DNA of 64,000 nucleotides from a candidate division WWE3 bacterium (GCA_026396615.1 JAPLWK010000008.1:75817-139816), one strand, 5' to 3'; positions 3,905 through 56,292 are shown, numbered from the stretch's first letter. Notes: generated from the letters alone by a model not told the origin. A program made the numbers and translations.

Positions 3905-3998
<94 letters not shown>

Positions 3999-8766: not shown

Positions 8767-9683
8767 TCTGTAAAAGATGGTTTAGAGAATATAAAATAGA
8801 ATTTTCTTTATTTATAGTGGCTCTAATTTTATCGCTGTTACCAATTTTTGTTAGTGTAGTTAAAACTCCACGAGACTTTATACCAACTCTAAACAACCAG
8901 TTTTACGATATGCGTGACGTTTTTGTTTATACAGCAGGTGTAAGGCTAGGGCTAGATGGTAACTTTTTGTATAAATATAAATTTTACCCGGCTAAAGCAG
9001 AGAACCAGGTGTTAATCTATCCTGCCTTAACTATTACCGGTTTAATTCTAAAACCTCTAAGCGTATTAATCCCCAAATTTTACCTAGCTATCGGTGGGTA
9101 CCTATTACTTAAAATTATCGGGTCTGTTTTACTTTTTTTAGCAGCCCTGCACTTTTTCAAATCTTTTAATTTTAGTAAAAGAGAATCTATAATTACCACC
9201 GCTTTTTTATTGTTTTCTGGAGGCTCAGTAAGTATTGATTTCCCTGGATTATTTCCTGAGGCGGCCCTAACTATCGCCTCCTTTTCTTTAGATTTATCAT
9301 TTACACTACTGGCCGTAAGCTTTACAAAAAGGATCGTTGAACATTTCAATAAAATAAATTGCCTGTGGTTAGCGGCAGCAATACTTGGAGTAGTAGTTAC
9401 CCACCCCTATAGCCTATTACCAGTGTTATGTATAGTTATAGGAACTACTACAATTTTACTAGCCAAGAAAACTATTAAAATCCAAACAAGTGCGGGTATT
9501 TTTGCGACGTTTATACCGGCATTAAGTTACTGTGTGTATCTGTACTACAATTATTATCAATTGGATGCATTAGGTTGGGTAAAGATGTTTGATGGGGTGG
9601 CCCAATTTATGAAAACTCCACCGGTAATCGTAATAGTTATCTACCTCGGTTTACAGGGGACACTGGTGGCGGGTATATCTTAA
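8763..9683 (+). CDS. polytopic membrane protein, N-terminal part of a GT-C-like glycosyltransferase/polymerase (possibly interrupted)
   Basis: At least 8 predicted TM helices. It overlaps the upstream MTase gene by 4 nt and ends 36 nt before the next membrane-protein ORF, which is in another frame. Confidence 0.35.
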   Translation: MICKRWFREYKIEFSLFIVALILSLLPIFVSVVKTPRDFIPTLNNQFYDMRDVFVYTAGVRLGLDGNFLYKYKFYPAKAENQVLIYPALTITGLILKPLSVLIPKFYLAIGGYLLLKIIGSVLLFLAALHFFKSFNFSKRESIITTAFLLFSGGSVSIDFPGLFPEAALTIASFSLDLSFTLLAVSFTKRIVEHFNKINCLWLAAAILGVVVTHPYSLLPVLCIVIGTTTILLAKKTIKIQTSAGIFATFIPALSYCVYLYYNYYQLDALGWVKMFDGVAQFMKTPPVIVIVIYLGLQGTLVAGIS

Positions 9684-9718: not shown

Positions 9719-10273
9719 ATGTTTGTATGGTTGGGTTCGGCTTTTATTACAGCTTACCTACCAAGCAATACACAAAAGGCGCAAATAAAAAGCCTAGGTT
9801 TAGTATTGGTCGTTATGGCGGGTGCGGCCTTTGCCAATATAATTAGTAGTAAGTTAACTAAAATAAACTGGAAAATATTAAGCCCAATCTTACTAATTTT
9901 TCTAGGAGGCTATTTTATTAATACAACTTTCCCAATTTATAGAATACTTAACCAAAAGACCCCAGATAAAATCAGTTACATCTCAAAAAATAGATTAATG
10001 GCTTTAGATTGGTTAGACAAACACGAAAATAACAAAAGTAGAACGGTATTATCAACCGAAAAAGAAATGGGCAGCTATGTACCCCTAATAACAAATTTAA
10101 CTACATTAAATAGTTATGCATTATTTGAAAGTGCGGAAATTATAAAGGACAATTCTAAAGTTATACCCGATTATGTAATCGAAATTAGCGGCGGTAACAT
10201 TATAAAATCTACGGAATATGGGGCAGTTTACCAAAATCCGGAGGTAACTATTTATGAAAATACCAAAATTTAA
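9719..10273 (+). CDS. membrane protein with C-terminal extracytoplasmic domain (possible C-terminal part of the preceding GT-C-like gene)
   Basis: Two TM helices followed by a soluble domain. Its size and position suggest a frameshifted continuation of 8763..9683. Confidence 0.3.
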   Translation: MFVWLGSAFITAYLPSNTQKAQIKSLGLVLVVMAGAAFANIISSKLTKINWKILSPILLIFLGGYFINTTFPIYRILNQKTPDKISYISKNRLMALDWLDKHENNKSRTVLSTEKEMGSYVPLITNLTTLNSYALFESAEIIKDNSKVIPDYVIEISGGNIIKSTEYGAVYQNPEVTIYENTKI

Positions 10274-11813
10274 TAAACCAATCTTTACTGAGGCACTGTG
10301 GATTGGTTTAACAGCAGCCATTTTATTTTTCGTATTTCTTAATATAGCTCTTAAATACTTAGATCCCGATTTAGGTTGGCATTTAGTAATTGCCCAAAAT
10401 TTCTTAGAAACCGGCTTCTTCCCCAGTGTAGATGTGTACTCTTTTGCTATTAAAAACTTTCCTTGGGTAGTGTTTGAATTTCACCTCTCTAACCTAATGT
10501 ACTTAATTTATAAGCAAATTAGTTATTTAGGGTTAGCGGTAGTTTTTTCGGGAATAACAGCCGCCTTACTCACTTTACATATTTATTTAACTCGCCAAAT
10601 ATTTAAAATACGCCTACTAACTATCCTAATTTTCGGTGGCGTTTTAATAATCGGCACCTTTAGCACTTTTGGGATTCGCACCCCGGTATTTTCGATTTGG
10701 GCCAACATAATCCTTTTTTGGTTGCTGTGGGATCTACTAAAAGACAAACCTCGATTACTTACTAGATTATCGTTGATGGGACTATTTTTAATCTGGGCTA
10801 ATTGCCACCCCAGCTTTTTTGTAGGAGTGGCCACTTTAGTGATTGCGGTAATCTATAAAACTCTGCGCCGCAAAACAGTTAGTTTAGCCGACATTACCAC
10901 CGTCATCACTACCGGCTTAATAACACTGCTGAACCCTTACGGCATTCGACTATGGTGGGAAGCTCTGGGGCACTTTTTGCCCACTAGTAGCTTAATGCAT
11001 ACATATATTAGAGAGTGGCAATCGGTGTTTAAAATGTTTCCAGTGGATTTACTGGGGCTAATTACTCTCTTTTTCGTACTGCTGGTGTTTATAGAAAATT
11101 TTAAGAAACTGTGGAAAAACTACCCCGCTCATTTTATCGTCGCTGTAATCTTTTTAGTGGGTACTTTTATGGCCACTCGTAATATTGGCCTCTTAGCTAT
11201 TTGGGCCTTACCCTTAGTCTTAGCTACCCTAAACAATAGTGTAAAGGTGGCTCTTCCGCCAAAACATTATCATTTAATTAGGGTGCTCCAAGGCGCCCTA
11301 GCCATTTTAATAGTTAGTGAATTTGTCAGCTTATTAGCAATTAATTGGTGCACTAACTTTCTGCAAACTGGGGCCAGTGGCTACCCTTCAAGTAAAGCTT
11401 TAGACGAAGTTAAGCAATTAACTAATCAGGGTGAGTGGTTATACAATCCTTATGATTGGGGTGGCTATTTAGACTGGCACTTTAAAGGGACTCCTCAAGT
11501 TTTTATTGACGGACGAATGCCCGCCACCTGGTTTAATAAAGATAATTTCCCGTTTAAAGATTATGTGGCCATGTATAGCACTAAGGGTAAAGGGGAAATT
11601 TTCGCCAAGTATGATTTTACGGTGGCGATAGTTAAACCAACTATAGCGTCCAGTCTTGACCCTTTTAATCGATTTTTAATTGGGGGAGCGGCGGGCGAAG
11701 CTAAACTGAACGCCGAGGCGGAAAGATTATCCGTAAAAACTTGGCTGGAGGGGCAACCGAATTGGAAAAAAGTTTATAAAGATGACACAGCTGTAATATT
11801 TGTCAAAAAGTAA
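10254..11813 (+). CDS. polytopic membrane protein, GT-C-fold-like (ArnT/PMT/YfhO-like) with C-terminal soluble domain
   Basis: About 12 TM helices, then an approximately 150-aa hydrophilic C-terminal domain (YNPYDWGGYLDWHFKG...). Confidence 0.4.
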   Translation: MKIPKFNKPIFTEALWIGLTAAILFFVFLNIALKYLDPDLGWHLVIAQNFLETGFFPSVDVYSFAIKNFPWVVFEFHLSNLMYLIYKQISYLGLAVVFSGITAALLTLHIYLTRQIFKIRLLTILIFGGVLIIGTFSTFGIRTPVFSIWANIILFWLLWDLLKDKPRLLTRLSLMGLFLIWANCHPSFFVGVATLVIAVIYKTLRRKTVSLADITTVITTGLITLLNPYGIRLWWEALGHFLPTSSLMHTYIREWQSVFKMFPVDLLGLITLFFVLLVFIENFKKLWKNYPAHFIVAVIFLVGTFMATRNIGLLAIWALPLVLATLNNSVKVALPPKHYHLIRVLQGALAILIVSEFVSLLAINWCTNFLQTGASGYPSSKALDEVKQLTNQGEWLYNPYDWGGYLDWHFKGTPQVFIDGRMPATWFNKDNFPFKDYVAMYSTKGKGEIFAKYDFTVAIVKPTIASSLDPFNRFLIGGAAGEAKLNAEAERLSVKTWLEGQPNWKKVYKDDTAVIFVKK

Positions 11814-13969: not shown

Positions 13970-14920
13970 ATGAAATTTTTAAAAGTCTTTTTTTTGTGTT
14001 CGATTATCTCTGCAGCTCTAGTATTTTCAAGTCGACCTGTTTTGGCAGCTGCCGGAGACTGCGGAGCGGGCTCCTGTCCGGCTAATTATACCTGCCAAGC
14101 GACATCCAATCCGATATTTTGTTGCCCAGTTGCTACTCCGACTCTTACCGCTTGTGGCACCAGCTGCTGCGAAGTCGCTAATTGCTATCATCCGGCAATA
14201 GGTTTACCAACCTGCGTTAATACCAACACCAGTAACTTAAGCACCTGTGGAAGTAATCTCTGTGTCACACAAATTTGTTGTGATACAGGCACATTAGATA
14301 ACTGTGTGCCATTACCAGCTGCCGGTTGTAGTCAGCGTCAACGGGTAAACGATGGCTGCGATAGCGACGGCGTTACCTGTCACCTAAAGCCTACCGACGC
14401 TTCGGTCCCCGCGCGGTTCATCACCGCGGCCGGTTCTGAGTGTGGTAATCACTTATGTGACCCCGGTGAGGCGTGTGAGTTTTCGATTGTCGCCGGAGGC
14501 GTACCTTTTACCTGCGATGGCAATGGCGGCACATCACCACTACCTGCTGGACAAACTTGCAACGCCACCTGTACACAAATTATTTCCAACGGCCAAGGTG
14601 GAGCGATTAGCGGCAATCCCTCAACGTATCATCTTGACACCACTGCCATCGGGGTCACCCCTAAATTCACAACGCTTGGTGGCATTACTTCTTTTGTCGT
14701 TAAGACAATGGTCGGGTTGGCTGGCGTGGCTTTTATGATCATGTTTTTGATCGGCGCCTTTAAGTTTGTGACTTCCCAAGGCGATAAAGCGGCTGTAGAG
14801 AGTGCCAAAGGCACGATTACCAGTGCTTTTATTGGCGTGGCCTTAACGGCGGCCTTATTTGCTATAATGACGCTGCTACAGAACGTTTTTGGCGTTTCGT
14901 TACTAAACATCACGACCTAA
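13970..14920 (+). CDS. fusion protein: signal peptide, a Cys-rich extracellular domain of about 200 aa (about 40 Cys), and a C-terminal TrbC/VirB2-like pilin domain (paralog 2)
   Basis: The C-terminal 75 aa (VGLAGVAFMIMFLIGAFKFVTSQGDKAAVESAKGTITSAFIGVALTAALFAIMTLLQNVFG) are homologous to the neighbouring pilin paralogs. Confidence 0.5.
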   Translation: MKFLKVFFLCSIISAALVFSSRPVLAAAGDCGAGSCPANYTCQATSNPIFCCPVATPTLTACGTSCCEVANCYHPAIGLPTCVNTNTSNLSTCGSNLCVTQICCDTGTLDNCVPLPAAGCSQRQRVNDGCDSDGVTCHLKPTDASVPARFITAAGSECGNHLCDPGEACEFSIVAGGVPFTCDGNGGTSPLPAGQTCNATCTQIISNGQGGAISGNPSTYHLDTTAIGVTPKFTTLGGITSFVVKTMVGLAGVAFMIMFLIGAFKFVTSQGDKAAVESAKGTITSAFIGVALTAALFAIMTLLQNVFGVSLLNITT

Positions 14921-14923
14921 GTT

Positions 14924-15238
14924 ATGAACTTAATTACTAAAGCCTACGCTGTTGTGATTGATCCTGGAATGATTGGGGTTAAAAATATTACCCCGGAATC
15001 GGGAATTATGATGGTCGTTAAAGCTCTAATTGGCGCTTGCGGCTTTGGCGCTTTTATTTTTTTAATAATCGGTGGCGTCAAATTTGTGGTCTCAGCGGGA
15101 GACAAAGGGGCCGTGGAAAGTGCTAAAAAGACAATTACCTTCGCCGTCATCGGCCTGGTCCTGGCCGCGGCCGCTTTTGCAATTGCCTCCTTGTTACAAA
15201 ACGTATTAGGGATTAATATTCTAAATGTAACTATCTAA
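14924..15238 (+). CDS. TrbC/VirB2-like pilin-family protein (paralog 3)
   Basis: ALIGACGFGAFIFLIIGGVKFVVSAGDKGAVESAKKTITFAVIGLVLAAAAFAIASLLQNVLGI. Confidence 0.5.
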   Translation: MNLITKAYAVVIDPGMIGVKNITPESGIMMVVKALIGACGFGAFIFLIIGGVKFVVSAGDKGAVESAKKTITFAVIGLVLAAAAFAIASLLQNVLGINILNVTI

Positions 15239-15262: not shown

Positions 15263-15620
15263 ATGTTTTTAATCAAAGATCTATTAGTAAAAGCTGCGTA
15301 TGCGGCACCAATTGATATTTTTAAAACTGCAGACGCTACCAGCGTTGACTTAAAAATTCAGAATGTTCAGACAGTAGTTTCTACCGGTATTAAAGCCCTA
15401 ATCGGAGCCGCCGGTTTACTGTTCTTTGTGATGTTAGTCTGGGGTGGTATTCAATTCGTCACTTCTGGCGGCGATAAAGCTCAAGCTACCGCCGCTAAAG
15501 ACCGAATTACTCACGCTTTATTGGCATCGTAATTGTGGCAGCCGCTTTCGCTATTGCCACGTTGCTCCAAAACGTCTTAGGAATTGGAATTACCGATTAC
15601 AACATTAGTAATGCTTACTA
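15263..15620 (+). pseudogene. TrbC/VirB2-like pilin paralog 4, disrupted by a 1-nt deletion frameshift near 15518. It is a near-identical tandem duplicate of paralog 5
   Basis: nt 15401-15588 are identical to 15775-15963 except that a single C is missing. The ORF stops at 15532, but the out-of-frame downstream sequence encodes the conserved C-terminal helix (IVIVAAAFAIATLLQNVLGIG). A good RBS (AGGAGGTGA) is present. Confidence 0.5.
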
Positions 15621-15642
15621 AGGGAGGTGAATTGTTATAATT

Positions 15643-15996
15643 ATGAATTTTTTAAATATAATCTCTGGTAAAGCTTTCGCTGAAAGTGTATTTGTAACCG
15701 GAAATAAAGCCACCGCTGTAGGCTTAAATATCTCCGACACCGGACTTCTGGTGTCCACAGCTATCAAAGCCTTAATCGGAGCCGCCGGTTTACTGTTCTT
15801 TGTGATGTTAGTCTGGGGTGGTATTCAATTCGTCACTTCTGGCGGCGATAAAGCTCAAGCTACCGCCGCTAAAGACCGAATTACTCACGCTCTTATTGGC
15901 ATCGTAATTGTGGCAGCCGCTTTCGCTATTGCCACGTTGCTCCAAAACGTCTTAGGAATTGGAGTTACCAACTTCACGATCCAACAGGCTTACTAA
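15643..15996 (+). CDS. TrbC/VirB2-like pilin-family protein (paralog 5)
   Basis: ALIGAAGLLFFVMLVWGGIQFVTSGGDKAQATAAKDRITHALIGIVIVAAAFAIATLLQNVLGIG. RBS GGGAGGTGA. Confidence 0.55.
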   Translation: MNFLNIISGKAFAESVFVTGNKATAVGLNISDTGLLVSTAIKALIGAAGLLFFVMLVWGGIQFVTSGGDKAQATAAKDRITHALIGIVIVAAAFAIATLLQNVLGIGVTNFTIQQAY

Positions 15997-16059: not shown

Positions 16060-16368
16060 ATGGCTATATGCACAATTGGTGATCCACCCACTATAGATCA
16101 ACTGGGCCCCTGCTTTGTAAGCATTATTAAGCTAGTGGTAGGTTTTGCTGGGGTGGCTACCGTAATTGTGTTTTTAATTGGCACCGTTCAGTACATCACT
16201 TCCCGCGGTGACAAAGAAGGCGTTACCGCGGCTAAGGGTACCCTCACCTACGCCATTATTGGCCTGGTGGTGGTCGCCGTCGCCTTTGGGCTAGTCAGTC
16301 TTATTGACCGAACTATTCTTGGTGGAACCAACACTCTTCTCAACTTCGACGTTCCCAGTATTCACTAA
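16060..16368 (+). CDS. TrbC/VirB2-like pilin-family protein (paralog 6, most divergent)
   Basis: LVVGFAGVATVIVFLIGTVQYITSRGDKEGVTAAKGTLTYAIIGLVVVAVAFGLVSLI has the same architecture as the other paralogs. Confidence 0.45.
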   Translation: MAICTIGDPPTIDQLGPCFVSIIKLVVGFAGVATVIVFLIGTVQYITSRGDKEGVTAAKGTLTYAIIGLVVVAVAFGLVSLIDRTILGGTNTLLNFDVPSIH

Positions 16369-16409: not shown

Positions 16410-16444
16410 TTCAGATTGATAATTAATTAGTTTATACTTACCTC

Positions 16445-19400
16445 ATGCCCAAGCGAGTGTCGATAATATTGGAATTTTCATTATTATTAATTGCAATTAT
16501 TATTCTAAAACCAACCCCCGCCTTTGCCGCTGCTCCGGATCCCGTGGCCTGCTTCACCAACGAAGATCCCACCTTTGGGGGCGTTACTCGAGGCAATTCT
16601 ACCAGCTTTAATGTTCTATTGAACATGAAAATCACCGATTTCTACTGCGCCGCTCCTAACTGGCCCGTCGCTTCCGTTCTTGAAGGCAACGATGCCACGC
16701 ATATGGATGTTGGCACTAACTGCCCGGCGGCCAATGATCCGGCAGTCCTGGCTAAAATCGTGGCCCAACTAAAAAGCCAAATCGAGAATGTTTCCTTAAT
16801 CCCAGGTGCCATGACCAATCCCAGCGTTCTTAGTCAAGCCAATTTTCAGGGCGATACTACTTGGACGTTACTGCGACCGCCTAGTGATATTACTCCCAAC
16901 AAAGTCAACAATATTACCGGCCAAACCGCTCTTAATACAGTGGGCACTTCCAAGATTTACTACGCCGCCTGCACCAACGTGCCCGAGGTGGGACCGGTCT
17001 GGTTTTCAATGGCTAAAGACGTCCCAGCTCCTCAGGGCAAAGTCCTACCCTCGTATCGTAAAGAAGCCGCCGCCTCTTTTTACCTGCAAAATTATTTGAC
17101 CCAAGTGCCGGGTGACGATCCAATCATTAAAGAGCTTAAAAAGGAAACGCCGGTTTTTAATGACAATACTACCTCCGACCTTCTTCCCTTTCCAAAACTT
17201 AGCTTTCAGTTAGCCTCTCGAAAAATTGCCGAAAGCGATTATTTAATTTACTGGAAACTATGCGCCAAAAAGGGACCTGTGGACACAGTCAAAAAAAATA
17301 TTTCATGCCAACTTAGTAATTTTATTACTGACATCGAGCACACCGATGTTAGCGGTGCGAAAAGTCTGGTCGCCGAAATTCCTAACGATGCTTGGGGCAA
17401 GAACACCGGCGATGACTTCACTTGCTTTACCACCGGCGATTTCGACACCCATCCTCTTAAAGTGACAGCAACCCCAGGCAGCAGCTACCCGCTTTCCGTC
17501 AAACTCATTGGCACGCCGATTGACGAAAACGTTTGTCAGAATAATGCGCAGCTCGATAGTGCCGTTTATCTCGACCCCAATAATCAATTGGCATACAGCG
17601 GTTATTCGACTACCCCTCACGTGGCCTTCTGTAATGGCGTCAACTCAACAGTCGTCAACAATACCAGTCAGAGCGTGTGTATTGGTGGAGACTGTCATGT
17701 GACGGCGATTGCCAAATTTTTTAACGACGCTTCCGCTAAAATCAGTGCTGTTTTTGACAATTGGATTCATCAACTCACTCCTACTACTACTTGGGGTGAC
17801 GTAAATCCTGATTCCGCAGCGTCCTGTCAAAAGACAGCGGAAGATATTTGTAATGGCCCCAAAGGTCAAGGCGCTTCTGATAATCTAATCATCACCCAGT
17901 CCACGGACTTCAATTGGATTCAGGTGGATCCGGCCGCCAAACCGGTCGACAAAATAATTAAGGTTTTCGTTACCAACAATAGTAAAAGGGATGCCACCCT
18001 TAATGTTTACAGCCAAGTTCTGGTCACTAGCGAAAGATCGCTCCCGGTAACAATTACCACCTCCAATGCCGCGGGAAGCCAAAATAGTCCTCAAATTGCC
18101 GTTTACGGAAACACTATTTACTGGAATGGCCTGATCGTCCCCGCAAATGGCGTCACTACTGAACTTGATTATCACGTTAGCGTGACTGCAATAAACTCCG
18201 GAACTATTTCAGCTACTTCTGGTGTCAGTGGTGATATTTATAAAACTGTCACTTTTTATAGTGACACTAACTTTGCTTGTCAGAAAGTCGCTGGAGTTGG
18301 TACAAATTCCTGTGATCCTAAAAATAATGACGCCGACTGTAGCGCTAAGCACCTAGCATGTAATAACGGCACCGGTATCTGTGAGTTAGTAAACGGCGCC
18401 GGTACTAATACTTGTTTAACTAATTCCCAATGTAAAGACGACAAGCGACATCTTGACTGTGTAGGTAACGCCTGTGTGGCTGTGCAGGGGACTGGGGTAG
18501 ATAATTGTAATCGTTTGGCGAGTTGTAATACTACTACCCATACCGGTTGTAGCCTCGATTCGGCAAACCCAACTTGCGCGAGTTTTACTTATGTTGGTCC
18601 TAATAAACCAACCAATAATTGCAGTATCAGTGGTAATAGCGGATGCGACGGTGCTAACTCCTCAAGTTTTCATATGGAGTGCAGCAGCGTCGGTAAACCC
18701 GAGCCTAGAGATGTTTCGCAGCCCGAATCGACTTCCACGCAGTCCGGCTTAATTACCGTTTCCAGTACCAACGCTTCTGACGATGAAAACTTATGTGTGA
18801 AGATTGCGAAAATCGTCTGCTATATAACCACTATGCCGTCCCTAATGAGCGGTTACTCCTACACCCAACCTCTAGAGGTTAAAGTTTATCCGTACCCGGA
18901 GGCTTCATATACTCAAGGCATAGACACGCAAGCCGCCAGCCCTAAGGATGGTCTTTTTAATCTCTTCTACGCGCCTGGACAAGATAACAAAATCGCCGCT
19001 TTAAGCGAAAAGGATGTTGACGCCAAAGCCGGATTAAATACTAATATAAACGGTAACAGCCCCGCCACCGACGCTTCGATTAAAGGCAGCCAACAGACCC
19101 TGTCGCCTTTGAAGTATCTGCAGAAAAATGCCCTCTGCCCTCCCGGTCAAGAGGCAACCTGCCCCGATATGCCCCAAACTGTCAACGAGGCGATGCCAAC
19201 TGACGGGAGCATTCCACCTCCCGATACTCCACCGCTACCAGGACCAGTTGTTCCCGGCGCCAACGTTGGCTTCAGCGTTCCAGCTTGCACCGGAGGCAAT
19301 GACGTGGCCATTTCCCAGCGTTCGACCTACACCCAAAATATATTAGCCCAAGCCGCAGCAGCCGAGGGCGTTCCAGTGAGTTTATTAACAGCTATTTTGA

Positions 19401-19852
19401 CCGTCGAAAGCGGTAACGACGCTCTAATCTCCGCCAACGGGACCGCCCCCGTCTGCGTTACTTCTGTTTGTAGTGCTCGCGGCTGGTTTCAAATCACTAG
19501 CGGCTATCAAAATGTGGATTGTAGTGAGTGCAGCGCTTGGTGCTGTGATTACAATAATGACAGCATTAAAGAAGCGGTGTGCTTAGAATCTAGAAGCGCT
19601 TTTGATCCCCCCGGAAATTTTGACCTCTGCAACCCAGCCCAGTCCGCCATCGCCGCTGCTAAAGTTTTAAAGGCTAAGATGGGTGTCGATGGTACACACG
19701 TGTGGACGATCGATGATGCCTGTGTAGCTGCTGCTCGCTACTTTGGAGCGGATAGCTCAGCCTGTGAAACCAGTGGTGGTTATTATCCGCGCCTTGCTAA
19801 CTGTACTTATGGCGGATTTGTAAAAAAGTTTGTGAATATTACCGGACTTTAG
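16445..19852 (+). CDS. giant secreted Cys-rich protein (1135 aa) with C-terminal lytic transglycosylase (SLT, VirB1-like) domain
   Basis: Signal peptide. Three tandem G-x-G-T-N-x-C-x5-6-C modules lie at aa about 620-690. A Pro-rich linker (PPPDTPPLPGPVVPG) follows. The C-terminal LTAILTVESGNDA...GWFQITSGYQ matches the SLT catalytic E-S motif and the GLMQ-type motif. Confidence 0.55.
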   Translation: MPKRVSIILEFSLLLIAIIILKPTPAFAAAPDPVACFTNEDPTFGGVTRGNSTSFNVLLNMKITDFYCAAPNWPVASVLEGNDATHMDVGTNCPAANDPAVLAKIVAQLKSQIENVSLIPGAMTNPSVLSQANFQGDTTWTLLRPPSDITPNKVNNITGQTALNTVGTSKIYYAACTNVPEVGPVWFSMAKDVPAPQGKVLPSYRKEAAASFYLQNYLTQVPGDDPIIKELKKETPVFNDNTTSDLLPFPKLSFQLASRKIAESDYLIYWKLCAKKGPVDTVKKNISCQLSNFITDIEHTDVSGAKSLVAEIPNDAWGKNTGDDFTCFTTGDFDTHPLKVTATPGSSYPLSVKLIGTPIDENVCQNNAQLDSAVYLDPNNQLAYSGYSTTPHVAFCNGVNSTVVNNTSQSVCIGGDCHVTAIAKFFNDASAKISAVFDNWIHQLTPTTTWGDVNPDSAASCQKTAEDICNGPKGQGASDNLIITQSTDFNWIQVDPAAKPVDKIIKVFVTNNSKRDATLNVYSQVLVTSERSLPVTITTSNAAGSQNSPQIAVYGNTIYWNGLIVPANGVTTELDYHVSVTAINSGTISATSGVSGDIYKTVTFYSDTNFACQKVAGVGTNSCDPKNNDADCSAKHLACNNGTGICELVNGAGTNTCLTNSQCKDDKRHLDCVGNACVAVQGTGVDNCNRLASCNTTTHTGCSLDSANPTCASFTYVGPNKPTNNCSISGNSGCDGANSSSFHMECSSVGKPEPRDVSQPESTSTQSGLITVSSTNASDDENLCVKIAKIVCYITTMPSLMSGYSYTQPLEVKVYPYPEASYTQGIDTQAASPKDGLFNLFYAPGQDNKIAALSEKDVDAKAGLNTNINGNSPATDASIKGSQQTLSPLKYLQKNALCPPGQEATCPDMPQTVNEAMPTDGSIPPPDTPPLPGPVVPGANVGFSVPACTGGNDVAISQRSTYTQNILAQAAAAEGVPVSLLTAILTVESGNDALISANGTAPVCVTSVCSARGWFQITSGYQNVDCSECSAWCCDYNNDSIKEAVCLESRSAFDPPGNFDLCNPAQSAIAAAKVLKAKMGVDGTHVWTIDDACVAAARYFGADSSACETSGGYYPRLANCTYGGFVKKFVNITGL

Positions 19853-19885
19853 GCAGTTAGGGCGCTACTATGCTAAAATAACCTC

Positions 19886-21397
19886 GTGAAACCAGCCACA
19901 ACTACCGCCAAAATAATAGCCCTTATCACCCTTACCGCCTTTATCACCCTTATTAACACCACCCCTACAAATGCGGAGACGATAAGCTGCGGTGAAGTGG
20001 TGCCTACCACTGGTGCTGGGGCCGCTAAAAGCCCTTCCCAATATTTTGAAGTTTCAGTACCGGCCAGCTTTGGTATGTCTGAAGAAGATATTAGAAAGTC
20101 AGCCGAAGAAAAGTTAACCCGAGAAATTACCGTGGCTCAAGATAAATACTCAACTCCCAAAGCCGCCAGTCTCTCCCAAAAATATGAAGACATGCGCTTT
20201 GTGTTGCAGCCGCCAATGAATCCCACCGTCAACAGCTCTGCGCAAGGCATGAGTAAGGCCACGGAATATATAACCGCCTGCGAAGAAGGCACTACTAATT
20301 GGTTTTATATTGAGAGCCAGGGCATTGAAGGGCAAATTAGTAAGGATTTCACCCTGGCCGATAAGGCCACACAGCCCCTCAATGATTATTTAATTCATCT
20401 ACCGCTGTCGCCAACCAGAGTTGAAGAAGTAAATTCCAGCCAAGGGGCCGCCGCTCACTATTTTTTGGACCAACCCGACAGCGGAATTCCCAAGATGTCA
20501 CTGATTCTGCGACCAAGGATCGAAGACACTGATAGTTATAACGTTTATTGGGATCTGTGCGTGACACCTCCCAACCCCTACGACGCGAGTAATAGGGTCA
20601 GTTGCCCTTTTGAAGAGTTTGTGACCGAATTATCGACGAGTACCGGTGACACGCAGTCGATCGTTCCTGGAGCCTATACCAGCTTTGACGGCTCGATCGT
20701 TAACTGGGGAAATAGCCAAAGTGCCATGTGTGTAAGTTCCGAGACGCTAAAACTATCACCCTTTAAAGTTGCTAAAGGCCAAGGAGTGAGCGTGACGGCT
20801 AAGATTTTCGGTCGGCCGAGTGAAGCCAAAAGAGATACTTGCGTTGATAACGCCGCCGAAGTAACAGCCAACGCCTTTGCCTCGATTGATGGTGTGACCA
20901 AAAGTGAACATAGTCAAGCAGCCACCAAAGTGATGTGCCCCGGCGTCTATACCCCGGCCGGCCGGATTTTTAAACCGGAAGACCACTGCATTGCTGGTGT
21001 TTGTAAAATCGACCCGGCTATTCACACTGTTCAATCAATTACCGGAAACCTATGGGCCTGGCTTCAAAGTGCCCTTAGTAACTGCAACTCCGTCGCCGAG
21101 TGTATTGCCAAAATCCTCGTCCAAGACACTCGTAAATACTATGTTTATTTTTATAACGCTGGGGGCAATTACGGAGCCATCAATAGCAGTGCTACCAATA
21201 CCGGCGTTCAGTCCGGTTTTAATCAGTTATTTCGCCCACCTCAAGATGAATTTTCCAGTATCTTTGCCGAGGAACCAGCCGGCGATAACAACCACTTAAG
21301 CCACAACACGCCAATTAAGTCGGACTACACCAAAGTGCAGACGTATTTAACCCCACCGGGACAAAGTTTCCTCACAGATAAATCAGAAATGCGTTAA
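19886..21397 (+). CDS. secreted protein, paralog of the N-terminal domain of the 16445 protein
   Basis: Signal peptide. The shared motifs YNVYWDLCVTPPNP...VSCPFEEFVTE match LIYWKLCAKKGP...ISCQLSNFITD, and SLILRPR matches TLLRPPS. Confidence 0.45.
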   Translation: MKPATTTAKIIALITLTAFITLINTTPTNAETISCGEVVPTTGAGAAKSPSQYFEVSVPASFGMSEEDIRKSAEEKLTREITVAQDKYSTPKAASLSQKYEDMRFVLQPPMNPTVNSSAQGMSKATEYITACEEGTTNWFYIESQGIEGQISKDFTLADKATQPLNDYLIHLPLSPTRVEEVNSSQGAAAHYFLDQPDSGIPKMSLILRPRIEDTDSYNVYWDLCVTPPNPYDASNRVSCPFEEFVTELSTSTGDTQSIVPGAYTSFDGSIVNWGNSQSAMCVSSETLKLSPFKVAKGQGVSVTAKIFGRPSEAKRDTCVDNAAEVTANAFASIDGVTKSEHSQAATKVMCPGVYTPAGRIFKPEDHCIAGVCKIDPAIHTVQSITGNLWAWLQSALSNCNSVAECIAKILVQDTRKYYVYFYNAGGNYGAINSSATNTGVQSGFNQLFRPPQDEFSSIFAEEPAGDNNHLSHNTPIKSDYTKVQTYLTPPGQSFLTDKSEMR

Positions 21398-21403
21398 TCG
21401 TTG

Positions 21404-21425
21404 AGGACGAGGCATGCCTCGTCCC
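21404..21425. terminator. GC hairpin with GCATGC apex (GGACGAGG-CATG-CCTCGTCC) between convergent genes
   Basis: 8-bp perfect stem. The 26-nt string TTGAGGACGAGGCATGCCTCGTCC is repeated identically at 49700. Confidence 0.4.
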
Positions 21426-21497
21426 TACACTTATCGTCAGGAGGCCTCCTTTAGATTTGTAGGGACGACCCATGGGTCGTCCTCGATGATTCCGCTT

Positions 21498-22508
21498 TTA
21501 TTGCAACGCCTTGACGAAATATACAGCCGTCGTCGACCGCCCATCCGCCAACGTCACCGTCCCACTAAACGCATATACCGGTTCCAAATACGTACCTCCC
21601 TTACGAGTTTCCAGATACTCAAGTTTAACGTCAGTGAAACTGGCGGCATTAATTCCCGCCACCATCGCCAAACTATCTCCTACAATTCCCAAAGTCGCGA
21701 GAGTCGCCCGTCCAGCCTTTAAGTCTTCCAAAGCCGTTTCGATCGTCTTTAAAGGATAAACCCCAAAACTACCGTCACCATTTTGCAGCAAATGATAGTA
21801 AAACTTACCGGAAATTAGACCGTCATTTTGCCAACCAAAAGTTATCAGGGTTTCGTCACCAGGCAAACTGGTTACCGGCACATTATTAACGATTCGCAGC
21901 ACATTAAAATCGCCGGTTGGCGTATTTAAAGGCTGGTCGAAACTTAAATCAGGATAATTTAAATCCAGTGATTTTAATAGATTCTGCAGCACTTCGGTCT
22001 TTGAAGAAGCCTCCCCGCCAAATGACGCGATATCGCGAGGCTGCGCCAAGTTAAAAATAAAGCCATCGCTTACGGAATCGTAAAATAGATAATTGCCTTT
22101 TTCCTGCCACGTCTGACCCCCAAAAGTCGGTTTTGACTTAACCGTAAAACCTAATTTGACCGCCAATTTGTCTAGGGTGGACGGGGTTAAAACAGCTGTT
22201 TGCCCAAAGCGATAGACTCGAGCGGTCGCTGGAAACTTTAAAGTCGCTGTATCAATAAAGCTCTGCATGGCTGAAGGAGTGGCTCCCGGAATCGGGCTCG
22301 GTGGTAAAGAAATGACCGGCAGCGAGCCGAAAGTTTGGCTAACAGGCTCGCTAGGCACGGTAGTTGAAGTTGCCGGGGTCGTTGGTGCCGAGCTGCGCGA
22401 GGCCAACAAAAAGATGATTAAACCAATCCCGACAGCGCTAATAATGGCAATGGCCAGGATTTTATTATTCGCATAAAACTCTTTAAAAGCGGCAATATAT
22501 TTATCCAT
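21498..22508 (-). CDS. bitopic membrane protein (N-terminal TM anchor, Pro/Thr-rich linker, extracytoplasmic domain)
   Basis: TM ILAIAIISAVGIGLIIFLLA. Its start codon abuts the stop of the upstream 1178-aa gene. A VirB8/PrgL-like role is pure speculation. Confidence 0.35.
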   Translation of the reverse strand: MDKYIAAFKEFYANNKILAIAIISAVGIGLIIFLLASRSSAPTTPATSTTVPSEPVSQTFGSLPVISLPPSPIPGATPSAMQSFIDTATLKFPATARVYRFGQTAVLTPSTLDKLAVKLGFTVKSKPTFGGQTWQEKGNYLFYDSVSDGFIFNLAQPRDIASFGGEASSKTEVLQNLLKSLDLNYPDLSFDQPLNTPTGDFNVLRIVNNVPVTSLPGDETLITFGWQNDGLISGKFYYHLLQNGDGSFGVYPLKTIETALEDLKAGRATLATLGIVGDSLAMVAGINAASFTDVKLEYLETRKGGTYLEPVYAFSGTVTLADGRSTTAVYFVKALQ

Positions 22509-25500
22509 TAAGAACCTCCACTACAAACCGCAGCCGTCGAATTAACATAAGTTTCCGGGCAGACGCGGCTACCACTCGGATCAAAGATTTCATAATGTAA
22601 ATGGTACCCCGTGGAATAACCGGTTGATCCGGTTTTACCAACAATGCCGCCAATTCCCACATGCCAACAAGAACCCGTTGGCTTTCCGGGCATATAGCCG
22701 CTACCGGAATCACCGGCAATCGGTTGAAGGTGGGCGTAACGAGTGCGGTAACCGCCATCACCGGTAATATCAATATACACACCGTAAGGTAAATTGTTAT
22801 TGTTTTCGGTGGAAACGGCGTAACGACAAGCATTTCCCGCGATTAAAGCGTGGATCTCTGTGCCATCGCCGTAAGGTAAGTCGACGGCCAGCAACCCCTC
22901 ACTACCCTGATGCCAGGAACAGCCAAAAGTGACAGAGGCTGCCCCATCAGGCAAGCCACATGGCGCTATTTCCGCCGGCGTCCCCACTTTTATAACGGCG
23001 GTGGCGCTGTTACTCACACTCGCCCCCGAAATTGTGCCGGTGGCCGTCACCGTAGCAACAATAAAACGACTAGTGGTCGTGTACACTGTCATATTACAAG
23101 TATAGGTGATGCTGGCTCCTGCGGCCAGAGTCCCGGACCCAAAAGAAATATTCCCGCCGGATTCGGTGCCACTGGGCGTACAGGAACCGTAGCTAACGCC
23201 ATGGCCTGGTTGATAATTGTAATTAACGTTTAAACCGATAAGTTCGCTGCTACTGATATTAGTCACCTTTATGGTGTAAACAACAGCGGGACTGGAGTTT
23301 AAAGTTATAATTGGGCGGTCCACCGACATCTCTACTTTTAGATTAGGTGACGCCGCCCCCGCATCCGCCCCGCCGTGAGCGTTAAAATTCGCCCCGCCAA
23401 TTACCCCCATCGCGCCAAAAAGTAGTAGTGGGAATAGACATCCCACCGCGCAACAACCACAACTAACCACTTTTATATTTTCCCCGGAACTCATGAAGCC
23501 GTAATCGGTAAATACGGTCATTTTAAAAGGTCGCCAATAAAAAGCTGCCGCTTTTGACACCGGCCCCTTAATCGCACTCCAAATCTTCCCTAAAAGTTTT
23601 TGGCCAATCCACGCCAAAACAGCGGTGATAATTGGACCTAAAACAGGAAGGGCATTAGATAACGCTTCGATTCCGCCTAATATAGCCCCCAAAACTGCTT
23701 TTAAAGCCACTTTAAGTGCACCTTTAAGACCTAGCTTAAGTGCCATTTTGGCCCCAGAAGAAATAAGTCTTGTCTTTAACAGTAAAGCCCAAGCCTTAGG
23801 ATCCGCCGCAGCTGATTTTACCCAGCCACCTCTAAAAAAATTGATGGGACCCTTCAGCCACGGAACTCTTTTAAAGAGCGCCTCGAAGGCCACGCTTTGA
23901 AGATGATCTAAATTTTTACCGACTGAAGATACGGCCCCAATATATTTCTTAGCCAATCCATGAGAATCGATATCTTCCCAAAATTTAGCGAATTTGGTTA
24001 AATCAGAAACGCTGCCAGTAGCATCAATAATACCGTGGCTAGTTAGAAATGCCTTAATTTGCGGGTTTTTAGCTAAAAAGGTAGCTAATTCCCCCGCTGT
24101 AAGACCGGCCACATCACGAGTCATCCCAGGAGCTTGACTAACAGACCGACCAATAACAGCCTGAAGAACATCAATACTCCCTGGAGCCCCTGAAAGAATT
24201 CCATTGATTTCTGCGGCACTTACTAATGGAAGATTAGTAGAAGGATCAATTATAGAGGCTGCTTTCTGTAAGAAGTTAACTACTTTCCAATCGGTGTCAG
24301 CAAAACCTAAAGCGCTACTTACTTTACCGGCAGTTAGCTTAATTGTTCTCTTAGCGACATCTTTATATTCTTTTTTGACGGGATCCCAGGTAGAGGCTCC
24401 GAAAGCGTCGAATTTATCAATTACATGTATGTATCCAAAATTCTCGGTGTCAATTAAACCAAATGATAACCTATTTACAACATTCGCTAATTTGGGATGA
24501 TCCGCAACTGCTTTAGTTAATTTGTAGAATGGCTGCCAACCGGTTATATCTGTGTCATCAAATCCATTTAGCAACCCGAATGTTTTTACCTTCTTCATTG
24601 CAAAACTAACGTAGTCTGCTGGGCTTAAGTACTTGGCGTATTGGGAAATGCCAGGAATATATTTGGCGACCCTGGTACCCCAAACAAAAAACTTAAAAAA
24701 AGATTTTGAATCAACTGCTTCTAAAAAGTCTGTCGCGGTACTTTGAGTTTCACGATAATTAACTAACTTCACCCAAGTCACCATCCGAGTTGCTTCAGTT
24801 GCAGACAAGCCTAGATCAGTCAAATATTGCGTACCACCCTTCAACACATCCTTCCACGTTTGATCAACATTTTTATACATCTCCTGATACTCTTTCTCTT
24901 TTTCCCAGAATTTATCTCTCGCCGCTTTAAGGTCAGGGTTGGTCATACTGGCCGCGGCGGCCGCCCCAATAACCAGTGGTTGGGGTACAAACGGAACCGC
25001 TAGGACACCTAACCCAGCAGTCGCGGGACTCATGCTACTTAGCCCTTTATTAAACCTATCTTGTATTTTCCCTTTGGTACTTATGTCAAATCTTAAGTTG
25101 TCCCACTTTCTTCCTTGAATATCCCCACTAAAAGGATGAAAAACACCACCGGAATCGGTATAACCGGTTTGTACTACACCGCTTGTGTCTGTATAAGAAT
25201 ACGTAACCGTCTGAGTTGGTGGAGCCACAGCAAAAGGATCTACTTTATCCGCTACCTCTATTGCTGACCCTTGAAGATTCTGCCAACGCAATGCAGCCGC
25301 TTGAACAGCCGGATTAGGAGAGGCTAACATGCTGGTTAAATTAGCCGCATTTATTTGGGCGTTAATAGAATCCAATAAATCAACTTGAAGATCTTGGTAA
25401 TTCTTTAAACGGCTAGGGCGACTACCGCGAGTTATTCCCCATTTCTGAATATCGTTAGCCACTTTCTTGTACATGTCGGTTCCGTTAACTATTACAGAAG

Positions 25501-26044
25501 CTGAAGAGCTGATAGCCCCAGTAACAGGATCTTCTACAACTAAACCTTTACCACCGATACCGTGATTCTCACCTTTAACTAAAGGCTGCCAAAAATACTC
25601 CAGCTCTGCAACTGCTTCTAGATCTTCCGTGTTAACTACTGCTTTCCACCAATTATCTGCAGTTTTTTCTAAAACTTTCTCAGGGTCATCTAACCAATCT
25701 TTTAAATTTAGGGAGAGTGGGGTGCCCGCAGCTCCTGGGAGGTCCCTGAGTTCTTGTTTAGTAGTTTCTACATCAATATCCTTCTCACGATCACCTTCAG
25801 GGTTATAGCGAGCGCTCAAGAAGCGGTTTATATCTGCACCTAAATTTTTATAAACTTTAGCCGGATAAGTACCAATATTTAAATCGTCTATAAAAGCGTC
25901 AAAATCGCCCTCGTCTAAAAGTCCACCCCCGTACTCATAAGGCTCCCATTCTTTTACGTAGCCTCGAGCAATCGGTTTTCTACCTTTTGGGGGAACTTTT
26001 TTAAAACTCCGGCCTGGGCCTCGCTTCTTTTTGGGTGGTGGCAT
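22508..26044 (-). CDS. giant protein (1178 aa). It has a highly basic N-terminus, a long alpha-helical region with a Gly/Ala/Lys-rich amphipathic segment and a TM, a DUF11/CARDB-like beta domain, and a C-terminal peptidase M23 (LytM) domain
   Basis: The C-terminal TGYSTGYHLHYEI and HALIAGNACRYA...YGVYIDI match the M23 HxxxD / HLH metal-binding motifs. The N-terminus is MPPPKKKRGPGRSFKKVPPKGRKP. A tape-measure-like AL-K-rich stretch lies at aa about 720-800. Confidence 0.55.
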   Translation of the reverse strand: MPPPKKKRGPGRSFKKVPPKGRKPIARGYVKEWEPYEYGGGLLDEGDFDAFIDDLNIGTYPAKVYKNLGADINRFLSARYNPEGDREKDIDVETTKQELRDLPGAAGTPLSLNLKDWLDDPEKVLEKTADNWWKAVVNTEDLEAVAELEYFWQPLVKGENHGIGGKGLVVEDPVTGAISSSASVIVNGTDMYKKVANDIQKWGITRGSRPSRLKNYQDLQVDLLDSINAQINAANLTSMLASPNPAVQAAALRWQNLQGSAIEVADKVDPFAVAPPTQTVTYSYTDTSGVVQTGYTDSGGVFHPFSGDIQGRKWDNLRFDISTKGKIQDRFNKGLSSMSPATAGLGVLAVPFVPQPLVIGAAAAASMTNPDLKAARDKFWEKEKEYQEMYKNVDQTWKDVLKGGTQYLTDLGLSATEATRMVTWVKLVNYRETQSTATDFLEAVDSKSFFKFFVWGTRVAKYIPGISQYAKYLSPADYVSFAMKKVKTFGLLNGFDDTDITGWQPFYKLTKAVADHPKLANVVNRLSFGLIDTENFGYIHVIDKFDAFGASTWDPVKKEYKDVAKRTIKLTAGKVSSALGFADTDWKVVNFLQKAASIIDPSTNLPLVSAAEINGILSGAPGSIDVLQAVIGRSVSQAPGMTRDVAGLTAGELATFLAKNPQIKAFLTSHGIIDATGSVSDLTKFAKFWEDIDSHGLAKKYIGAVSSVGKNLDHLQSVAFEALFKRVPWLKGPINFFRGGWVKSAAADPKAWALLLKTRLISSGAKMALKLGLKGALKVALKAVLGAILGGIEALSNALPVLGPIITAVLAWIGQKLLGKIWSAIKGPVSKAAAFYWRPFKMTVFTDYGFMSSGENIKVVSCGCCAVGCLFPLLLFGAMGVIGGANFNAHGGADAGAASPNLKVEMSVDRPIITLNSSPAVVYTIKVTNISSSELIGLNVNYNYQPGHGVSYGSCTPSGTESGGNISFGSGTLAAGASITYTCNMTVYTTTSRFIVATVTATGTISGASVSNSATAVIKVGTPAEIAPCGLPDGAASVTFGCSWHQGSEGLLAVDLPYGDGTEIHALIAGNACRYAVSTENNNNLPYGVYIDITGDGGYRTRYAHLQPIAGDSGSGYMPGKPTGSCWHVGIGGIVGKTGSTGYSTGYHLHYEIFDPSGSRVCPETYVNSTAAVCSGGS

Positions 26045-27825: not shown

Positions 27826-27901
27826 GCGCTCGTAGCTTAATGGATAGAGCATTAGCTTGCGGAGCTAACGGTTGCGCGTTCGAATCGCGCCGAGCGCACC
27901 A
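27826..27901 (+). tRNA. tRNA-Arg(GCG), CCA encoded
   Basis: Cloverleaf with acceptor GCGCTCG/CGAGCGC, D-stem GCTT/GAGC, anticodon stem TTAGC/GCTAA, loop TTGCGGA (anticodon GCG, G37), and T-loop TTCGAAT. Confidence 0.75.
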
Positions 27902-27907
27902 CGTTTT

Positions 27908-27936
27908 TTGACTACCATCTAAAAAAGGCGTATAAT
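27908..27936 (+). promoter_or_regulatory. consensus sigma70 promoter for ssrA: TTGACT-17 nt-TATAAT
   Basis: Perfect -10, near-perfect -35, and 17-bp spacer, about 24 nt upstream of the mature tmRNA 5' end. Confidence 0.6.
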
Positions 27937-27960
27937 GGTTCCCAGGCACTTTAAAAACAT

Positions 27961-28330
27961 GGGGACGACGGGTCTAGACTAGATTCTGTCGATTACCTGT
28001 TGCAAGCCCAGCCAAGTTAACTGGTAAAACTGACTTAAAACATAATTGCTGACAAAACAGCTACTGTTCCCGCTTACGCCTACGCTAACGTGTATGCTTA
28101 AGTTTTCGAACCGTTCTTAAGAGTGATTTTTCCTAGGTGATCGCTTAAGGGCGTAATAAAATCTGGGATCGGGGGTTCTACCGGTGAGTAGAACTTTTTA
28201 GGCATTATTCACCACTGGCTTACTTTGTTTGTTGATTTAAAGGAGTAAGTTTTATCTAAAAATCATCTATGCTTGTAGATACGGGAGTCAAAGCTTTAGG
28301 ACGAGGGTTCAACTCCCTCCGTCTCCACCA
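27961..28330 (+). ncRNA. ssrA: tmRNA (SsrA), 370 nt
   Basis: The 5' GGGGACG pairs with the 3' CGUCUCC-A-CCA, including the G3:U70 alanine identity pair. The 3' GGACGAGGGTTCAACTCCCTCCGTCTCCACCA is a tRNA-like T-arm and acceptor. The internal tag ORF is gct gac aaa aca gct act gtt ccc gct tac gcc tac gct aac gtg tat gct taa (ADKTATVPAYAYANVYA*). Confidence 0.85.
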
Positions 28331-32111: not shown

Positions 32112-32202
32112 TGGCGGAGGGGGTGGGATTCGAACCCACGTGCCCCTTGCGGGACGCTTAGTTTTCGAGACTAGCCCATTGTGACCACTTTGGTACCCCT
32201 CC
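32112..32202 (-). tRNA. tRNA-Ser(CGA), type II, CCA encoded
   Basis: The reverse complement folds with acceptor GGAGGGG/CCCCTCC, G73, D-stem CCA/TGG, anticodon loop CTCGAAA, a long variable arm, and T-loop GGTTCGAATCC. Coordinates are within ±2 nt. Confidence 0.7.
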
Positions 32203-56289: not shown

Positions 56290-56292
56290 AAA

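Follow-up and report, generated by a model that had tools for sequence, protein, structure and literature searches.

A candidate VirB1-like protein with a divergent lysozyme-fold tail, and its enzyme-less paralog, beside a VirB2-like pilin array in a candidate division WWE3 bacterium

Lytic transglycosylases cleave MurNAc-GlcNAc bonds and release a 1,6-anhydro-MurNAc product. Two described groups of specialized enzymes come closest to the protein reported here. The first comprises VirB1 of the Agrobacterium VirB/D4 type IV secretion system (T4SS) and further enzymes serving type IV or type III secretion, such as EtgA; VirB1 has ~240 amino acids (aa) and is recognized by standard SLT/VirB1 profiles. 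The second comprises PrgK (pCF10), TraG (pIP501), TcpG, and CwlT, which are large, N-terminally anchored or exported multidomain hydrolases of monoderm (MPF-FATA) T4SSs bearing an SLT or muramidase domain. Here, we describe two adjacent genes in a 64,000-nucleotide (nt) stretch of chromosomal DNA (GCA_026396615.1, JAPLWK010000008.1:75817-139816; hereafter, the window) from a metagenome-assembled genome (MAG) of candidate division WWE3, within the Patescibacteria, or candidate phyla radiation (CPR). The bacterium is ultrasmall and probably host-dependent. The longer gene encodes p1, a multidomain protein with a candidate lytic-transglycosylase-like tail, and the shorter encodes p2, a paralog without that tail (Table 1). 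Both reading frames were found exactly where an earlier reading of the DNA, made from the sequence alone (the sequence-only reading), had placed them.

Measured against VirB1, p1 is much larger (1135 aa), carries its putative enzyme C-terminal to a novel scaffold of 900 aa, scores below the Pfam cut-off, has a Cys-rich insert, and is paired with an enzyme-less paralog. Its likeness to PrgK and TraG lies in its size and multidomain build, and it departs from them in several ways. The scaffold domains are unrelated, and the combination of SLT with CHAP or NlpC/P60 (and LytM) in one polypeptide is missing from p1, in which Pfam searches found no CHAP, NlpC/P60, or M23 match. Instead, the hydrolases are spread over separate genes (SpoIID-like, p1, and M23), and whereas PrgK has its own LytM/M23 domain, the M23 domain at this locus sits on a neighboring gene for a 1178-aa protein. 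Compared with the solved MltF, MltE/EmtA, MltC, Slt70, phiKZ gp144, and goose-type lysozyme structures, the p1 tail shows 8 to 21% identity, has 12 Cys (four of them invariant family-wide) and an extra Cys-rich insert of ~27 aa, and belongs to a family in which the Ser of the catalytic motif is not conserved.

The wider setting comes from a survey published in 2025 that covered 3,035 genomes of Patescibacteria; it placed the ancestry of their T4SSs among monoderm systems (MPF-FATA) and found the relaxase mostly absent (PMC12102498). TrsD, PrgI, and VirB4 are widespread in these genomes, PF18895 pilin genes are very common, and VirB2 arrays are common as well, with 441 arrays of 2 to 11 divergent pilin genes each (PMC12102498). 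Canonical VirB1 is seldom near virB4, and the survey authors noted that other glycosidases may take its role; no PrgB-type adhesin was found (PMC12102498). Few systems have been shown to be essential to epibiotic life in Patescibacteria, and the T4SS is one of them: in "Ca. Southlakia epibionticum," T4SS genes, including a VirB2 array, are essential for epibiotic growth, as are a peptidase and a lysozyme homologue adjoining virB4 (PMC12102498). The locus described here resembles such arrays in having five tandem, divergent PF18895 genes and a chromosomal, apparently relaxase-less T4SS (PMC12102498), and differs in that the array precedes a cryptic SLT-fold protein and its paralog.

Our favored reading, held with slightly better than even confidence, is that p1 is a glycan-strand-cutting accessory of a WWE3 T4SS/VirB2-like pilus cluster, doing on a lineage-specific scaffold the work that VirB1, or the SLT portion of PrgK/TraG, does elsewhere. 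Two lines of evidence carry it, namely, the character of the C-terminal domain and the conserved company that the gene keeps.

The tail contains the features from which the sequence-only reading had derived its lytic-transglycosylase label: an LTVESG motif at aa 985 to 990, with the putative catalytic Glu988 at nt 19406-19408, and GWFQ, a GLMQ-like motif, at aa 1013 to 1016, with a Pro-rich linker ahead of the domain. A further motif, RYFG, lies at aa 1098 to 1101, and its Tyr may correspond to that of the downstream A-Y-N-x-G-type motif of GH23/SLT enzymes. When the last 249 aa were scanned alone, the sole Pfam family matched was PF01464 (SLT; E 0.0033), with 17.4 bits against a gathering cut-off of 21.3 bits; the family itself was thus as anticipated, and the match weaker than had been assumed. 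When PDB sequences were searched by phmmer and hmmsearch, using the tail and profiles A1 and A2, all matches were lytic transglycosylases (EmtA/MltE and phiKZ gp144). The sequence and profile alignments place Glu988 opposite E64, the catalytic residue of MltE, and opposite the Glu in the ES motif of gp144, and the p1 segment SARGWFQ pairs with SATGWFQ of gp144.

An exhaustive search found the p1-type C-terminal domain in seven further proteins, in addition to the p1 orthologue P0002, and an added profile search brought the family to at least 34 members, none of them annotated by Pfam. Some carriers are stand-alone proteins (174 to 435 aa), and others have the domain at the C terminus of unrelated proteins of ~1000 to 1180 aa. 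In an alignment of 23 family sequences, Glu988, Gly1013, Gln1016, Tyr1099, and four Cys are invariant, and the Gly of the RYFG motif is nearly so.

From the single sequence, AlphaFold gave an unusable model of the tail, with a predicted local distance difference test score (pLDDT) of 40.8. With the 23-sequence alignment, the pLDDT rose to 77, with a predicted template modeling score of 0.77, and the model showed the lysozyme-like, alpha-helical, two-lobe fold of the GH23/SLT superfamily. Glu988 stands at the C-terminal end of the second helix (model residues 34 to 45), the position of the catalytic Glu in motif I of GH23/SLT enzymes, and in p1 it is followed by Ser. The figures listed for the fold matches of the model were MltF, 8.9; goose-type lysozyme, 8.8; GH23 chitinase, 8.7; Slt, 8.1; MltE, 8.1; MltC, 7.8; Slt70, 7.7; and SltB1, 7.6; lower in the list came Tse3 (a type VI secretion effector), phage phi6 P5, FlgJ, EtgA (a type III secretion enzyme), and a Tn916-like conjugative-element hydrolase. 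Foldseek searches of the PDB and of viral models pointed to the same families, with weak E-values of at least 0.03 and template modeling (TM) scores of 0.3 to 0.47. We conclude that the p1 tail belongs to the GH23/SLT lysozyme-like superfamily, in which it is highly divergent, and that its candidate active site is intact; a muralytic activity is predicted for it.

The second line of evidence is the locus. The VirB1-like label proposed by the sequence-only reading finds support in the five-pilin array directly upstream of p1 and in the contiguity of related blocks with VirB3/PrgI, TraC-like, and VirB4 genes. Relatives of p1 were placed on four metagenomic contigs (L001, L002, L006, and L007). 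L002 reads, in order, a SpoIID-like gene (minus strand), five pilins, a 520-aa polytopic membrane protein, a 1081-aa p1 orthologue, a 505-aa p2 orthologue, and, on the minus strand, a 341-aa gene and a gene for an 1177-aa DUF11+M23 protein; L007 has the same gene order. L006 begins inside the pilin genes and contains the remainder of the block (including a 331-aa gene and an 1184-aa DUF11+M23 gene), and in both L006 and L007 the block continues into a 422-aa gene, PrgI/VirB3 with CarboxypepD_reg, a TraC-like gene of 232 aa, and a VirB4-type ATPase. On the short fragment L001, the beginning of a p1 orthologue comes after two small open reading frames (ORFs), which correspond in size and position alone to the last two pilins of L006 and L007. 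We tie p1 and p2 to the T4SS cluster because the order of pilins, p1, p2, the gene of ~335 aa, and the M23 gene is kept in three other contigs, two of which are contiguous with the core. Such a recurring order is hard to explain by chance in genomes that rearrange.

Identity to the related contigs varies along the block. The SpoIID-like orthologues of L002 and L007 occupy the same position with 64 to 65% identity, and those of the 336-aa protein do so with 43 to 44%. Between the window and L002, identity falls from 64% for the SpoIID-like protein to 44% for the 336-aa protein, 39% for p2, 37% for the M23 protein, and 29% for the p1 N-terminal domain (N-domain). The T4SS core genes of the window are 53 to 77% identical to those of L007 (tblastn). 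Since the core is contiguous with the block in L006 and L007 and is present in the window at 54406-58403, the cluster is split by ~30 kb here, with ~20 to 30 kb of housekeeping genes between the block and the core and 422-aa gene. This indicates a rearrangement in one lineage.

The paralogy of p1 and p2 held up. BLASTP aligned p1 186-419 with p2 139-375 at 40.0 bits (E 3e-7, 23% identity), compared with a maximum of 26.6 bits over 200 shuffles of p2 (mean, 19.0; standard deviation, 1.8), and nine Cys align between the two proteins. Profile-profile comparison of the two orthologue sets (hhalign) gave a probability of 99.2% and an E-value of 1.1e-19 over 330 columns. A second shared module was found toward the C terminus, by way of the relatives: p2 430-493 matches P0002 842-914 (E 9e-8), p2 415-494 matches P0003 816-899 (E 0.005), and p1 770-902 matches P0003 772-898 (E 4e-8), with a direct comparison of p1 838-902 and p2 445-493 giving E 0.14. 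Because the C-terminal ~80 residues of p2 match this module, p2 amounts to p1 minus stalk, tether, and enzyme. Orthologues of p2 (505 and 459 aa; 39% and 36% identity) lie directly behind the p1 orthologue in L002, L006, and L007, and the long and short genes are therefore two old lineages, separately conserved in at least three other contigs. The sequence-only reading had further proposed that only one member of the family retains the peptidoglycan-cutting domain. The absence of an enzyme from p2 agrees with this, but "retains" implies a polarity that goes beyond the evidence, because the C-terminal domain of the long member is exchangeable, as seen in the L002 orthologue.

Upstream of both start codons (16410-16444 for p1 and 19850-19885 for p2), there is no Shine-Dalgarno sequence, and a -10-like box (TATACT for p1 and TG-n-TAAAAT for p2) ends 6 to 7 nt before the start. 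The same pattern occurs at several other genes of the window. It suggests leaderless transcripts, with separate promoters for p1 and p2. Behind p2, a plus-strand ORF of 102 aa (21414-21722) overlaps the opposite-strand gene for the 336-aa protein, is Arg/Ser-rich, and matches no family. Nothing corresponds to it among the genes called in the related loci, and it is unlikely to be a real gene.

Export of both proteins, which the sequence-only reading had called secreted, is likely, as judged from their N termini. Each has one N-terminal hydrophobic segment followed by a candidate cleavage site of the AxA type (PAFA/AAP in p1 and PTNA/ETI in p2) and no further transmembrane (TM)-like segment, and the p1 orthologues have N termini equivalent to the p1 signal region. 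This segment may be a cleaved signal peptide or an anchor. The Cys content (45 in p1 and 11 in p2) fits the sequence-only description of p1 as Cys-rich.

The first ~900 aa of p1 had been called unrecognizable, and full-length p1 and p2 indeed gave no Pfam, NCBIfam, or PHROGs match; even so, homology to relatives discloses a DUF11-type region and the second module shared with p2. Searching a word-indexed set of 5.8 billion proteins with p1 returned p1 itself as the sole match, and the tail alone returned none, itself included. Looking up p1 among contigs by exact sequence likewise gave no record. The exhaustive HMMER search found the full-length relatives P0002 (E 1.8e-113) and P0003 (E 9e-43). 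For the N-domain, there was no Pfam, PHROG, or PDB match, also when its alignment (A3) served as a profile against the PDB, and a profile search of genome contigs with A3 found no relatives and also missed the source genome itself. The Ig-like region was assigned through P0002, which aligns over aa 6-640 with p1 aa 7-598 and whose aa 530-629 match PF01345 (DUF11; E 2.2e-5); p1 itself has no Pfam hit at aa ~481-606.

Between this region and the second module lies a Cys-rich stalk. The sequence-only reading had noted three tandem G-x-G-T-N-x-C modules; these stand at aa 617, 651, and 682, but the third reads GTGVDNC, and all belong to a series of four repeats with four Cys each (aa 610-746; unit, ~31 to 36 aa), the fourth being degenerate. 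The consensus is C-x2-V-x-G-x-G-x-[ND]-x-C-x5-8-C-x6-8-H-x2-C. Of 76 matches in the exhaustive HMMER search of p1, ~60 cover the repeats only (aa ~609-705) and are large, unrelated proteins; several of ten such matches that were scanned bear CARDB, PKD, Laminin_G, or other Cys-rich domains. Because the repeat-only matches dominate and occur in proteins with such varied domains, the repeats are best read as a generic extracellular spacer or stalk that is not diagnostic of function. The first pilin has a Cys-rich extension at its N terminus as well; no relation of the p1 repeats to it was detected.

The architecture varies among orthologues. P0002 has two DUF11-type domains, no Cys repeats, and the same GH23-like tail as p1. 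P0003, the type to which the L002 orthologue (L002 8176-11421) belongs, has another C-terminal domain of ~146 aa with the motif ALWIEESGASHY (sequence in L002, YNPAFIIALWIEESGASHYTNAWDFGC); neither Pfam nor the PDB gave a match to this domain, and profile comparison detected no relation to the GH23-like family. The idea that its ALWIEESG motif marks a hidden GH23-like relative or lysozyme found no support in those tests. The p1 lineage is thus modular and fast-evolving, with an exchangeable C-terminal "payload."

Under the favored reading, p1 would be exported by the Sec pathway through its N-terminal signal sequence, and the ~900-aa scaffold (N-domain, Ig-like region, four Cys repeats, and second module) would position the enzyme within the envelope. 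In this it would probably be joined by p2, a likely non-catalytic partner with the same N-domain and second module. The Pro-rich tether would present the GH23 lysozyme-fold domain, in which Glu988 would act as the single acid/base in cleaving MurNAc-GlcNAc bonds. Together with the SpoIID-like and M23 enzymes, p1 would then open a local gap in the wall for the pilus or channel, and that wall is most likely the cell's own. The association with a T4SS cluster that such an enzyme calls for is present: five VirB2-like genes adjoin p1, and the L006 and L007 blocks are contiguous with the core.

Several observations weigh against this reading. The tail stays below the Pfam SLT cut-off, and its 34 relatives all lack an annotation of the domain. 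The E-values of the PDB sequence and profile matches (~0.7 to 2.4) are not significant alone. The residue after Glu988 varies across the family (ES, EY, EG, ET, and EM), and one stretch of the model is poorly defined, with a pLDDT below 50: residues 82-108, the Cys-rich insert at p1 aa ~1026-1052. The T4SS core of the window is ~30 kb away from p1 and p2. Because the L002 orthologue bears a different C-terminal domain, the enzyme is not obligatory to the scaffold. Finally, C-domain family members that are short and stand alone (Woesebacteria type) show no consistent placement in pilin or T4SS loci, and for this reason the domain may be a general CPR wall enzyme that was recruited here. The name "VirB1" for the C-domain family as a whole was rejected on the same grounds.

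The alternative that survives best, though we hold it only tentatively, is that p1, with p2, is a host-directed surface or pilus adhesin, in which the N-domain and stalk bind the host envelope and the tethered enzyme breaches host peptidoglycan so that the T4SS or pilus reaches the host membrane. The build of p1 suits this role, since it is a long protein with an Ig-like domain, Cys repeats, and a Pro-rich tether, and its enzyme lies at the end opposite the sole hydrophobic segment; this distal geometry is lost, however, if the signal peptide is cleaved. Its evolution suits the role as well. Between the same two contigs, the N-domain is 29% identical where SpoIID is 64% identical, and the stalk and C-domain are swapped among orthologues, and both fast divergence and swapping typify proteins that interact with a host. 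Epibiotic growth of Patescibacteria requires the T4SS, for which no adhesin has been identified (PMC12102498). Against this stands the habit of the classical T4SS-associated lytic transglycosylases, which act on the producer's own wall. A more specific form of the idea, more doubtful still, holds that p1 and p2 make up a heteromeric host-contacting adhesin and wall-breaching head of the Patescibacterial T4SS/pilus, with the variable N-domain and stalk recognizing the host and the tethered domain digesting host peptidoglycan to start epibiotic feeding. The interest of the locus would be higher if a host-breaching adhesin proved true.

It is improbable that p1 is a general autolysin, with p1, the SpoIID-like protein, the M23 protein, and a nearby LytR-family protein forming a set for wall growth and division and the pilins being mere neighbors. 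Stand-alone C-domain members do occur in housekeeping-type contexts near ClpB and GroEL and without a T4SS core, and the distance of VirB4 in the window and the very common occurrence of PF18895 pilins in Patescibacteria (PMC12102498) would also fit such a role. The block order kept in three other contigs, two of them contiguous with PrgI/VirB3, TraC-like, and VirB4 genes, argues the other way. Quite unlikely, finally, is that the tail is not an active glycosidase, being a lysozyme-like module that binds glycan and is catalytically dead, or that its fold was assigned through a modeling artefact; this would fit the sequence-level statistics (all below threshold), the weak Foldseek values, the unconserved ES dipeptide, and a small lobe modeled at low confidence.

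On the favored reading of p1 as a T4SS accessory, the locus offers the WWE3 lineage a candidate hidden VirB1-like enzyme, possibly on an adhesin-like scaffold. What is new is a T4SS-associated, lytic-transglycosylase-like enzyme with a novel, paralog-paired architecture that belongs to a profile-invisible subfamily. Three items without Pfam coverage merit profiles for CPR re-annotation: the Cys-rich GH23-like family, the N-domain of p1 and p2, and their second shared module. We regard the practical significance as moderate, in that the locus refines the inventory of components of a machine that is poorly understood and adds no new principle.

Table 1. Features of the p1/p2 locus and its surroundings, in window coordinates
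Feature	Position (nt)	Strand	Residues (aa)	Basis or remark
p1, 1135-aa probably exported multidomain protein	16445..19852	+	1-1135	ATG start; NCBI "MAG: hypothetical protein NT141_02070," 100% identity
p1 signal peptide or signal anchor (putative)	16445..16528	+	1-28	MPKRVSIILEFSLLLIAIIILKPTPAFA; sole hydrophobic segment in p1; AFA/A site read from sequence
p1 N-domain	16529..17884	+	29-480	13 Cys; common to p2; no known family; hhalign of p1 family vs p2 family
p1 Ig-like (DUF11-type) beta-sandwich region	17885..18262	+	~481-606	Assigned by homology only
p1 four tandem four-Cys repeats	18263..18682	+	607-746	Regular expression and register; hold three GxG[TV][ND]xC modules
p1 Ser/Thr-rich spacer			747-779	
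p1 conserved second module	18782..19159	+	~780-905	YPYP, DGLFNLFYAPGQD, LCPPGQ; also at p2 C terminus
p1 Pro-rich linker	19160..19279	+	906-945	Composition; 11 Pro in 40 aa
p1 divergent GH23/lytic-transglycosylase-like (lysozyme-fold) domain	19280..19849	+	946-1135	12 Cys; putative catalytic Glu988
p2, 503-aa probably exported paralog, NT141_02075	19886..21397	+	1-503	GTG start; N-domain and second module; lacks the stalk, the linker, and the hydrolase domain
Five VirB2-like pilin genes	13970-14920, 14924-15238, 15263-15532, 15643-15996, 16060-16368	+		Directly upstream of p1
SpoIID-like protein, 632 aa	11906..13804	-		PF08486, E 3e-6; conserved upstream neighbor
336-aa N-terminally anchored protein	21498..22508	-		No known family; conserved downstream neighbor
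1178-aa DUF11 + C-terminal M23 peptidase protein	22508..26044	-		PF01551, E 7e-9; PF01345, E 1.5e-5
Orthologue of L007 422-aa gene	43746-45128	-		tblastn mapping
VirB4-type ATPase	54406-56289	-		Pfam; T4SS core
TraC-like 231-aa protein	56293-56988	-		Pfam; T4SS core
PrgI/VirB3 with CarboxypepD_reg	56985-58403	-		Pfam; T4SS core
SmpB	4329-4793	-		Ordinary chromosomal feature
tmRNA	27961-28330			Ordinary chromosomal feature
Three tRNA genes	Together with tmRNA, within 27826-28330, 3910-3998, 32115-32202			Ordinary chromosomal features

The pilin genes match PF18895 (T4SS_pilin; E 1.5e-5 to 1.9e-10) and are mutually related; the first scores 25.4 bits, just below the cut-off of 26.6 bits. This first gene encodes a 316-aa fusion in which a signal peptide is followed by a domain of ~170 aa holding 25 Cys and then by a two-TM VirB2-like module at aa 235-315, the predicted arrangement being a large Cys-rich extracellular head on a pilin. 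The third (89 aa; 15263-15645 region) is a frameshifted copy of the fourth, with 96% DNA identity over 219 nt; a 1-bp deletion lies near 15518, and the missing second TM helix continues in the +1 frame. It could be a pseudogene, the product of recent gene conversion, a phase-variable gene, or a consensus error of the MAG.

In the 1178-aa protein, DUF11 occupies aa 902-1014 and M23 aa 1054-1154, and TM-like segments lie at aa ~341-365, 777-813, and 856-887; the protein may thus join a wall peptidase to a T4SS component that sits in the membrane. The cluster also conserves a polytopic membrane protein of 519 aa (10254-11813), at another position in L002. Two ORFs nearby, 8763-9683 (306 aa) and 9719-10273 (184 aa), correspond to the N- and C-terminal parts of one 508-aa gene of L007, which points to a gene that is split or frameshifted, or else to a faulty assembly. 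Housekeeping genes surround p1 and p2 (SmpB, tmRNA, DnaG, RpoD, PNPase, IF-2, DnaK/J, and TIM), and no relaxase was detected among the ~50 ORFs of the window that were scanned, with ~14 ORFs of at least 100 aa lying outside the scan.

A dispersed intergenic repeat, TTGTCATTCCGGGCTTGACCCGGAATCCAGTAA, contains the hairpin TCCGGG-CTTGA-CCCGGA, with cores of 17 nt and a full element of ~33 nt. One copy lies between the last pilin and p1, and its reading as a terminator or known RNA found no support: it has no T-run, has no Rfam match at gathering thresholds, and is one of the dispersed copies. Nine copies are present, in both orientations (1941, 4015, 16383, 27728, 30940, 32010, 35103, 40567, and 58483), compared with 0.13 expected from shuffles.

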